From Heptranchias perlo (Eukaryota): a stretch of 64,000 nt of DNA. A program made the translations under genes and the position numbers. The notes under the pieces were generated by a model that saw only the letters and a program-made list of their open reading frames with translations, was not told the origin of the DNA and searched no databases. Of the stretch, positions 50,290 through 54,257 are shown one piece after another. The number at the start of each line of letters is the position of its first letter. Within the stretch, counting starts at the first letter, position 1. The stretch is from positions 16,988,001-17,052,000 of the forward strand of contig NC_090370.1 in NCBI RefSeq assembly GCF_035084215.1. The letters are read 5' to 3'.

Positions 50290-52850
50290 CATGTAATACA
50301 ATCCTGCAGGCACAATTCACACTTCTCCTGTAATACAGTAACTGCAGGCAGTGTTTATACTACTCCTGTAATAAAGTACTATAGGCAGTATCCACCTTGC
50401 TGGTGTAATACAGGACATATAGGCACTGTCACATTGCAGCTGTAATATAGTACCTTTAGGCAGTATTTGCAATGCTCCTGTGATACAATACCTGTAGGCA
50501 ATATTCACACTGCCCCTGAAATCAATTATTGCAAGTATTGCAGGGACTATTAAGACTAGTGCTGTAATACAGGACCCATAGGCAGTAGACACACTGCTCC
50601 TGTAATATAGTACTAAAGGCATTATTCATATTGGTGACACAACACCCGTAGCCAATATTCACATTGTGCTTGCAATACAAGCCTAAGTAGATCTGTAGGC
50701 AGTATTCACATTACTCCTGTAATGAAGGACCTATATGCATTATTTCCATTACTCCTGTAATACAGTGCCTTTAGGCAGTGTTTGTATTGCTGCTGTAATA
50801 CAGTGCCTTTAGGCAATATTTGCATTGCTCTTGAAATACAATACCATTAGACAATATTTGCATTGCTCCTGTAATATAGTACCATTAGGCAGTGTTTGCA
50901 TTGCTTTTGTATTACAGTACCTTAGCAATATTTGCATTGCTTCTGTAATACAGTACCTTTAGTCAGTATTTGCATTGCTCCTGTATTACAGTACCTTTAG
51001 CAATATTTGCATTGCTCCTGTAATACAGTACCTTTAGGCAATATTTGCATTGCTTCTGTAATACAGTACCTTTAGGCAATATTTGCATTGCTTCTGTAAT
51101 ACAGTACCTTTAGGCAATATTTGCATTGCTCCTGTAATACAGTACCTTTAGGCAATATTTGCATTGCTTCTGTAATACAGTACCTTTAGGCAATATTTGC
51201 ATTGCTCCTGTAATACAGTACCTTTAGGCAATATTTGCATTGCTTCTGTAATACAGTACCTTTAGGCAATATTTGCATTGCTCCTGTAATACAGTACCTT
51301 CAGGCTGTGTTTGCATTGCTCCTGTAATACAGTAACTTTAGGCAGTATTTGCATTGCTTTTGTAATATAATACCTTTAAGCAATATTTGCACTGCTCCTA
51401 TAATATAGTATCTGTAGGAAGTCTTCACGTTGCTCCTACAATATAGTACCTGTAGGCAGTATTTGCATTGTGGCTATAATACATTACCTGTAGGTAATAT
51501 TCACATTACTCCTATAATACAGTATTAGCAGAGATTACTAAGACCGCTCCTGTAATATAACAACTGTAGGCAATATTCACACCACTCCTGCAATATAGGA
51601 TCTGTAGGCAATGTTCACACGGCTCCTGTAATACACTATCTGCAAGGATTATTCAGACTGCTGCTGTAATAGAGTACCTGAAGACAGTAGACACATTGCT
51701 CCTGTAACACAGTACCTTTAAGTAATATTTGCATTGCTCCCATAATATAGTACCTTTAGGCAGTATTTGCATTGCTCCTGTAATACAGGACCTGTAGGTA
51801 ATATGCGACTTGCTCCTGTAATACAGGACCATTAAGCAGCATTCACATTTCTCCTGTAGTACAGTTTATGTAGGCAGTTTTCACATTACTCCTCCAATAC
51901 AGTAATAAAGGTGGTATGCACATTGCTGGTACAATACAATGCATTTAGGCAGGAATCACATTGTGCCTGCAATACAGGACCTGTAGGCAATATTTGCATT
52001 GCTGCTACAATACAGGACCTGTACCCACTTTTCGCATCGCTGCTGTAATCCAGTAGTGCAGCCACTATTTGTAGTGCACTTGTAATACAATACCTGTAGG
52101 CATTATTCAAATTACTTCTGCAATACAGGACTCTAGGCAGTATTCACATTGCTCCTGTAATACAGTACTTAAGGCAGTATTCAGGTTGCTCCTGCAATAT
52201 AGTACCTGTAGGCAATATTCGCATTGCGCCTGTAATACAGCACCTATAGGCACTGTTTGCATTGCTCTTGTAATACGGTACCTGTTGGCAGTATTCAAAA
52301 TGCATGTAATAGAATACTTTTGGGTAGTATTCACATTGTTCCTGTAATGCAATACCTGTAGGCAGTATTTGTATTGCTCCTGTAATGCAGTATCTGTGGG
52401 CAGTATTCAAATTGCGCATGTAATACAATAATTTTAAGAAGTATTCACATTGTTCCTGTAATGCAGTTTGCGCAGGCAGTTTTCATCTTGCTCTTATAAT
52501 ACAGTGCCATTAGGCAGTATTCAGAGCTCCTGTTGTATAGTACTCTAGGCTGTATTCACACTGCTCCTGTAATACAGTATTCACATTGGTGTAATACAGT
52601 ACCTTTAGGCAGTATTCATGTTGCACTATAACCTAGTAGCTTTAGACAGTACTCACATCGCGCCTTTAAAACATTGCTTGTAAGCAGGATTGACGTTGCT
52701 CCTGTAATACAATATGTTTAGACAGCATTCACACTACTCCTCTACCTAGAGGCAGTATTTGCATTACTGCTGTAATACAGCATGCTGGCAGTATTCACAT
52801 TGCTCCTGTAATACAACAGATAGCAGCAGTACTTACATTGTAGCTGCAAT
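50290..52850 (-). repeat. 38-bp intronic minisatellite, older diverged domain (homogeneous core ~50940-51340)
   Basis: Minus-strand consensus caatgtgaatactgcctacaggtactgtattacaggag; ~65 units. Confidence 0.95.
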
Positions 52851-52859
52851 TAAGGCAGA

Positions 52860-53292
52860 ACCTCCATTTATATAGTGCCTTATCACGTCCTCAGGACATC
52901 CCAAGCGCTTCACATTCCATGAATTACTATTGAAGTGCAATAACTGTTATGTTGATAAATATGACAGCAAGATTGCACAAACAGCATGTGAGTTAACTGG
53001 CCAGTTAATCTGCTTTAGATGGGGCTGGTTGAGGGAGGAATGTTTACCAGGACACCAGGAGAGCTTCCATGCCCTTCATCGAATAGAGCCATTGGATCTT
53101 TTATGTTCACCTGAGAGGGCAGATAGGGCCTTCATTTAACATCTCATCAGAAAAACGGCACCTCTGATAATGCAGCACGTCCTCAGTACCACAATGTAGT
53201 GCCAGCCTAGCTTATGAGTTTAAGTCAAAAAATGCAGCTTAAACTCATAACCTTCTGACGCAGGTGAGAGCGCTACCAACTGAGCCAAGCTC
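52860..53292 (-). mobile_element. DeuSINE (SacSINE1/AmnSINE1-like): tRNA head, Deu domain, L2-like tail
   Basis: Minus strand: tggctcagttggtagc head; tactgaggacgtgctgcattatcagaggtgccgtttttctgatgagatgttaaa..ggccctatctgccctctcaggtgaacataaaagatcc matches the recalled Deu domain; ends gcactatataaa. Confidence 0.8.
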
Positions 53293-53304
53293 TCACTAAT
53301 ATGG

Positions 53305-54257
53305 TTAGGCAGTATTAACACTGCTCCTGTAATACAGTATATTGTAGTCAGTATTAACACTGCTCCTGTAATACAGTATATTGTAGTCAGTATTAACACT
53401 GCTCCTGTAATACAGTATATTGTAGTCAGTATTAACACTGCTCCTGTAATACAGTATATTGTAGTCAGTATTAACACTGCTCCTGTAATACAGTATATTG
53501 TAGTCAGTATTAACACTGCTCCTGTAATACAGTATATTGTAGTCAGTATTAACACTGCTCCTGTAATACAGTATATTGTAGTCGGTATTAACACTGCTCC
53601 TGTAATACAGTATATTGTAGTCAGTATTAACACTGCTCCTGTAATACAGTATATTGTAGTCAGTATTAACACTGCTCCTGTAACACAGTATATTGTAGTC
53701 AGTATTAACACTGCTCCTGTAATACAGTATATTGTAGTCAGTATTAACACTGCTCCTGTAATACAGTATATTGTAGTCAGTATTAACACTGCTCCTGTAA
53801 TACAGTATATTGTAGTCAGTATTAACACTGCTCCTGTAACACAGTATATTGTAGTCAGTATTAACACTGCTCCTGTAATACAGTATATTGTAGTCAGTAT
53901 TAACACTGCTCCTGTAATACAGTATATTGTAGTCAGTATTAACACTGCTCCTATAATACAGTATATTGTAGTCAGTATTAACACTGCTCCTGTAATACAG
54001 TATATTGTAGTCGGTATTAACACTGCTCCTGTAATACAGTATATTGTAGTCAGTATTAACACTGCTCCTGTAATACAGTATATTGTAGTCAGTATTAACA
54101 CTGCTCCTGTAATACAGTATTTGTAGTCGCTATTAACACTGCTCCTGTAATACAGTATATTGTAGTCAGTATTAACACTGCTCCTGTAATACAGTACCTG
54201 TAGGCAGTTTTCATATTGCTCCTGTAATACAGTACCTGTAGGCAGTATTCACACTGG
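53305..54257 (-). repeat. 39-bp homogenised minisatellite (~22 near-identical units) plus two 38-bp donor-bearing units, the first overlapping the exon end
   Basis: Minus-strand unit cagtgttaatactgactacaatatactgtattacaggag. Confidence 0.97.

Follow-up and report, generated by a model that had tools for sequence, protein, structure and literature searches.

Junction minisatellites in human genes and a shark counterpart

Minisatellites that repeat a 5' splice site have already been described in human genes, and human boundary repeats and repeat-linked splicing are treated in the available portions of two further reports (PMC2812944, PMC10078293). In the closest described system, the 37-bp VNTR of human F7 intron 7, the first unit spans the donor and splicing selects the site farthest upstream (Borensztajn et al. 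2006, PMC1557585). The accessible part of the same report names additional junction minisatellites in IFI6 (6-16) intron 2, CBS intron 13, LMNB2, and PDGF; two extra donors are used in IFI6 and CBS, and none is given there as used in LMNB2 and PDGF.

The window analyzed here comprises 64,000 nucleotides of the shark Heptranchias perlo (NC_090370.1, positions 16,988,001 to 17,052,000); positions below refer to this window unless a contig is named. It contains an array with the defining features of donor-repeating junction minisatellites, namely, a tandem unit, a first unit that spans the exon-intron boundary, and a repeated intronic donor. As in F7, so far as the available text of PMC1557585 describes it, the unit is of the same size, the first unit lies across the boundary, and the donor is repeated along the intron. 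Use of the first donor, however, was demonstrated for F7, whereas in the shark it is suggested by contigs of putative RNA runs and by gene-model proteins. The F7 array has 4 exon bases per unit and 5–9 near-identical units, compared to 21 coding bases and 93 units in the shark array, which, unlike that of F7, is mostly 18% diverged, split by a SINE, common to several species, and located in the last intron. The shark array shares with IFI6, CBS, LMNB2, and PDGF the repetition of donors behind the real one (10–25 in the human cases), but those arrays are smaller and consist of near-identical units (PMC1557585). The shark array is thus a further example of a described phenomenon; the literature searched, whose coverage left out most subscription papers, yielded no shark case of a junction minisatellite.

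The human cases are short and young, and the shark array shows that a donor-repeating array can persist across shark lineages without disturbing the gene. A comparison of units between species would gauge any long-term purging of decoy donors, and the location in the last intron tests the "first donor wins" rule where NMD cannot clear a slip to the second donor. At present, the array is an oddity that can serve as a natural test and does not amount to a new mechanism.

Host exon, intron, and gene identity

The array starts at a 119-nt coding exon (54236–54354, minus strand) that encodes finger 3 and the first half of finger 4 of a ZNF148-like/ZNF740-type gene. The exon (54354–54236) ends in CAG TGT GAA TAC TGC CTA CAG|GTACTGTATTACAGGAG, and the authentic donor is CAG|GTACTG, cut between 54236 and 54235. 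The host intron, the last coding intron of the gene (47842–54235, minus strand; 6394 nt, GT..AG), leads to the last coding exon (46228–47841, minus strand), which begins with YFSRTDRLLKHRRMCH, encodes YFSRTDR at 47841, and contains 538 codons to the C-terminus.

The last exon is 100% identical to protein P0002 (source name "ZNF148-like isoform X2 [Heptranchias perlo]"), 70–91% identical to cartilaginous-fish proteins named "ZNF148-like," and about 44–49% identical to true ZNF148. The initial annotation assigned the gene to ZNF148 itself. This assignment did not hold: the gene is a paralogue, about 47–49% identical over the last exon, and the named shark ZNF148 (P0027) is, over the same exon, 92.7% identical to a gene on contig C7 and 47.9% to the array-bearing gene. 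ZNF148 orthology was rejected on the grounds that the best ZNF148 match in the genome is the C7 gene. Catshark members of a relative's cluster bear the name "zinc finger protein 740b," CSAD lies directly upstream of the array-bearing gene on contig C49, and in a list of human 12q13.13 genes given in the accessible part of PMC5477234, CSAD and ZNF740 follow one another. Therefore, the array-bearing gene is most likely a ZNF148 paralogue corresponding to a long form of ZNF740.

The ZNF740-like orthologue seems to have kept a long ZNF148-type C-terminal exon of 538 codons (46228–54354; C49:17.03–17.15 Mb); the bird and reptile ZNF740 proteins examined stop ~15 residues past the last finger. Several annotated isoforms (P0002) lack the finger-2 exon (C49:17052586–17052675), and all three finger exons are skipped in some shark and ray isoforms. 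An upstream exon (C49:17107663–17107776) contains a 27-bp coding repeat, LREHEELMK-like, in 4–5 copies, the number of which apparently differs among shark proteins.

Anatomy of the array

The 38-bp unit consists of the last 21 exon bases and the first 17 intron bases, and 93 units occupy 54256–50290 on the minus strand. When the array was aligned cyclically to the junction 38-mer, 94 rows resulted, one of which, of 4 bases, was dropped as junk. TRF reported periods of 38 and 39 from 54256 to about 50290, and a profile search of the whole window with the old units returned 93 matches, all inside 50292–54256. Between the junction and the consensus of the 68 distal units, 37 of 38 bases agree and one differs, the consensus having CAA in place of CAG, a synonymous Gln codon; placed on its own junction, the array consensus scored z = 19 and 17 against 60 shuffles. 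These results bear out the earlier proposal that the exon end and its 5' splice site are the unit of a ~3.5-kb array in the downstream intron, including the predicted alignment of the consensus to the junction. The further statement that old copies still translate was also correct: the open reading frame at 52107–52352 contains the 10-residue peptide cited. A coding role of the array reading frames was rejected, a search with P0001 among 1.84 billion representatives having matched a single sequence, a coiled-coil repeat protein of 16% identity.

The array, 3.5 kb in all, lies around a 440-bp SINE, with 25 units at 54256–53291 and 68 at 52846–50290, all on the minus strand. Unit 0 (54219–54256), the seed, holds the authentic donor within its 21 exon and 17 intron bases. 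Unit 1 (54181–54218; +38) is identical to unit 0 at 35 of 38 bases and contains the sole exact copy of the donor 9-mer. It is followed by a young block of 22 units of 39 bp (units 2–23; 53324–54180) that differ by 1.0% from their own consensus and in every one of which the donor is destroyed. Unit 24 (53291–53323) is old and forms the 5' part of the unit into which the SINE inserted (the remainder is at about 52850–52838). The SINE (52851–53290, minus strand) is full-length and tRNA-headed. Beyond it, the old array of 68 units of about 38 bp (50290–52846) encloses a second young block (50904–51356) of 12 units that differ by 4.4% from their own consensus and mostly carry AAG|GTACTG donors, about 2.9–3.3 kb from the real donor. 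The two young blocks, at 1.0% and 4.4%, suggest recent activity of the array, as judged from one assembly. In the 55 non-homogenised old units, 375 of 2040 bases (18.4%) are off consensus, and divergence shows no trend along the array of the kind that a master copy beside the exon would leave (Spearman −0.075, p 0.58).

Donor retention is uneven. With the real donor included, GT is present in 43 of 93 units (some of these counts hinge on the placement of a 1-base deletion in the unit alignment), AG|GT in 31, MAG|GTAC in 20, and exact CAG|GTACTG in 2; among the 92 intronic copies alone, the last three counts are 30, 19, and 1. GT is absent from all 23 of units 2–24. Accordingly, the initial annotation was right that donors are repeated along the intron, but its "dozens" of (C/A)AG|GTAC decoys were an overstatement, and near the real donor only one such copy, at +38, exists.

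Some other features of the units were noted. By eye, the donor-less 39-bp unit (53324–54180, minus strand) has an AG that follows a branch-point-like TACTGAC at a distance of about 21 bases and looks more like a weak acceptor than a donor; open frames run across the block. Positions 6–7 of the old units (50290–52846, minus strand) read TG in 33 of 55, CA in 13, and CG in 3, a decayed-CpG pattern; the CA-type units have further changes in common, so that one sub-lineage may account for the TG/CA pattern.

Origin and direction of copying

Pattern searches, which carry the weight for locus specificity given that the DNA searches score few candidates, found all genomic matches at the array locus for an exact 18-mer (28/28) and for a junction-spanning 21-mer with one mismatch allowed (12/12), with 0 control matches in each case. 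In the DNA searches, all 16 scored matches to a 304-base query were at the array locus, as were 44 of 45 to a junction query, the remaining one being the paralogous exon on C7. A dispersed satellite, the outcome that the initial annotation named as fatal to its proposal, was therefore rejected, and the repeat is private to the locus.

The C7 paralogue has its donor at the same codon, its intron begins differently, and TRF reported no array there in 20 kb. Bony-vertebrate ZNF148/281/740-type open reading frames that read through the exon continue with Val (GT donor) at the same position. Since the intron position is common to the C7 paralogue and the bony-vertebrate family, the junction must have existed before the array. 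The unit being a copy of this older junction and private to the locus, the array, on these comparisons, derives from the junction and not the reverse, in agreement with the direction originally proposed. The same intron position excludes intron gain via tandem duplication as the origin of this arrangement. Introns gained when an AG|GT site is duplicated in tandem have been described (PMC2812944); as far as the accessible text goes, they resemble the present case in the tandem copies of AG|GT surroundings at an exon-intron boundary and differ from it in that the shark intron predates its array.

Age of the array and its presence in other organisms

The SINE within the array is a high-copy, tRNA-headed 440-bp element that may be SacSINE1-like (DeuSINE). 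SacSINE1 has been described (PMC5499810, accessible in part). A first-look search of the genome gave 11,956 candidates; the best 39 other scored copies are 72–76% identical, and the copy in the array is 23% away from the consensus of five other copies.

DNA contigs from two other organisms extend from the exon into units 0 and 1, covering 54187–54875 in X11 (60 other letters, 3 gaps) and 54180–54882 in X17 (58 other letters, 62 gaps). Within unit 1, the two sites that differ from the consensus appear to read as consensus in both, as judged from contig depths among the rows listed. Short contig pieces match individual distal units, with non-consensus changes in common as seen by eye: one agrees with 50426–50460 (units 89/90) at 31 of 35 bases, another with 52169–52188 (unit 44) at 17 of 20, and pieces of both other organisms match 52524–52557 (units 34/35) more loosely. 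Given that these unit-specific changes are common to two other organisms, the array, its units already diverged, predates the split from these lineages. Judging from these contigs, the array is ancient and present in at least three organisms. Upstream introns are now about 9% apart between organisms; if rates were equal, the array would be roughly four times older than the split (18% from consensus compared to 4.5% per lineage), by a hand estimate in which rates may differ. The age of the array is the new element of the present analysis.

Splicing and the +38 donor

The real donor agrees with the donor consensus at 6 of 9 positions, strength being expressed as the count of matches. Read-through into the intron meets a stop at intron base 139, and use of the +38 donor shifts the frame, with a stop 85 nt into the last exon. 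By the junction-dependent rule, transcripts with a stop codon in the last exon escape NMD. The +38 product is predicted to be truncated and should escape NMD; any distal donor would, given the stop at intron base 139, be expected to yield an NMD target.

Two 120-nt contigs, one each from X5 and X6, span exactly 54236–54355 with 0 mismatches; both runs are guessed to be RNA, none of the listed runs being recorded as such, come from one sample of one study, and are represented by contigs, which drop rare forms. The comparison covered 54160–55000 in 4 of 23 listed runs, a region that ends short of the distal donors and of the last-exon junction. At 54160–54217, X6 has no depth and X5 has a single 187-nt contig (depth 2.7) with 9 mismatches, taken as another array copy, and a +38 form is absent from the listed contigs; this sparse coverage was not counted as evidence on +38 use. 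RNA-structure masking of the decoys was unsupported by the fold of 54290–54104 (z −1.63; 13 of 200 shuffles as good).

At the protein level, QCEYCLQ is present in 66 of 74 cartilaginous-fish paralogue proteins and is joined directly to [YH]FSRTDR in all 66; of the other eight, four skip finger exons and four do not contain the region. These proteins are gene models, many of them isoforms of one species, and the counts are not independent. Of these 74, none is an annotated isoform with array-derived residues. When the read-through peptide served as the query, none of 21 candidates of 150–2000 residues matched (weak evidence), and none of 70 hits contained array residues.

Explanations of the array

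The array is probably a neutral minisatellite, private to its locus, that began with a duplication lying by chance across the 5' splice site. The unit is the junction itself, which on the evidence above came first; a 38-bp tandem duplication, perhaps aided by the inner repeat TACTG-CC-TACAG-G / TACTG-TAT-TACAG-G, would have been followed by slippage and unequal exchange that raised the copy number in an ancestral shark to at least 70. These copies appear to have decayed by about 18%, a SINE entering one of them, and two variants to have re-amplified recently, one as 22 copies without a donor and the other as 12 copies with one. Following the F7 model, the donor farthest upstream would be the one used in splicing, even though it is weak. 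Distal copies lie 1.6 kb or more away and are on the whole of no greater strength, and their transcripts would run into a stop and NMD; leakage into a stable truncated product would be possible from the +38 copy only. The 21 coding bases would be held fixed by selection on finger 4. Chance seeding is plausible because arrays are dense in the region and just one fits its own junction, and the old units decay at ordinary, GC-biased rates. Against a neutral history stand the closeness of unit 1 to the consensus (2 differences, compared to 4–14 in the 55 old units), here as in X11 and X17, a closeness not expected from plain decay, as well as the somewhat faster erosion of donor columns, the long persistence in at least three organisms, and the derivation of the RNA contigs from one sample. 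It is rather unlikely that this mostly neutral array was additionally shaped by purifying selection on decoys, with donor-less copies favored near the real site so that only a donor-less variant could expand there. The absence of GT from units 2–24, 22 of which form the young block beside the exon, the survival of AG|GT in just 18 of the 55 old units, and the 131 changes found in the −3..+6 donor window compared to 110 expected from base-matched columns would fit such selection. The column test is weak, however (p = 0.06; p 0.02–0.39 over 12 uncorrected versions), the 22 donor-less units trace to one event, the nearest decoy is intact, AG|GT retention does not rise with distance (8/24, 7/16, 3/15), and the second young block retained its donors.

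The intact +38 copy could be a maintained alternative donor, giving an NMD-escaping mRNA for a short protein that keeps three intact fingers, lacks the C-terminal 538 residues, and could act as a competitor of the full-length factor. The exact 9-mer preserved in unit 1 only, the early frameshift stop in the last exon, the unusual closeness of unit 1 to consensus in all three organisms, and the use of the nearest pseudo-sites in human IFI6 and CBS, as given in the accessible part of PMC1557585, speak for it. Still, we consider this function very unlikely: array-derived residues and the read-through peptide went unmatched in the protein searches, and conversion from the constrained unit 0, the simplest cause of the closeness of unit 1, requires no function. 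A broader version, in which an old, shark-wide array has a working +38 donor as its first copy, producing an NMD-proof, three-finger, tail-less ZNF740-type isoform while selection strips the donors behind, appears distinctly unlikely; if true, a junction-born satellite would have turned into a conserved splicing switch. Highly improbable is an exchange between array and exon that rewrote or threatens zinc-finger codons, as the initial annotation feared, or an overwriting of the exon end by a pre-existing satellite. With about 90 homologous copies close to the 21 coding bases, conversion tracts are possible in principle, but there is no sign of conversion from array into exon: the exon retains CAG, compared to CAA in 49 of the 68 old units, 19 of its last 21 bases match the C7 paralogue, and QCEYCLQ is unchanged in the 66 proteins that hold it. 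Fixed changes of codons are thus already largely refuted, and the repeat that would have overwritten the exon is found nowhere else in the genome.

Regional repeat context

The 324 kb around the window contain 20 arrays that make up 46% of the DNA. In 640 array-by-junction alignments against 32 junction windows of 16 exons (edges approximate, from tblastn), only the 38-bp array fits its own junction. The next-best fit, a 46-mer and an acceptor 37–64 kb away (z 8.3, 60 shuffles), was taken as chance. According to the accessible part of PMC10620051, tandem repeats abound on short shark chromosomes. Arrays arise often in this region, so some would be expected to start on a splice site by chance.

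A 32-kb array at 12080–45886 (35-bp unit, about 910 copies, 84% matches) starts about 340 bases past the stop codon. Other introns of the same gene contain a 30-bp array of about 210 copies with old flanks (55007–63794), a 44-bp array of about 890 copies over 39 kb (C49:17058628–17097768), and a 32-bp array of 70 copies (C49:17103202–17105437), none of which fits any junction of the gene. One 46-bp repeat family is found at two places 25 kb apart, C49:17138319–17142093 and 17165267–17173516, in the first coding intron of the gene and the last intron of CSAD, which indicates that some arrays are multiply seeded. The TG-rich low-complexity array at 6444–8055 has long open frames (THTH/CVCV repeats) and is likely non-coding. 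The open reading frame at 1371–1982 (plus strand) presumably encodes the C-terminal half of a seven-helix receptor, of a kind that we take to be common in shark genomes.
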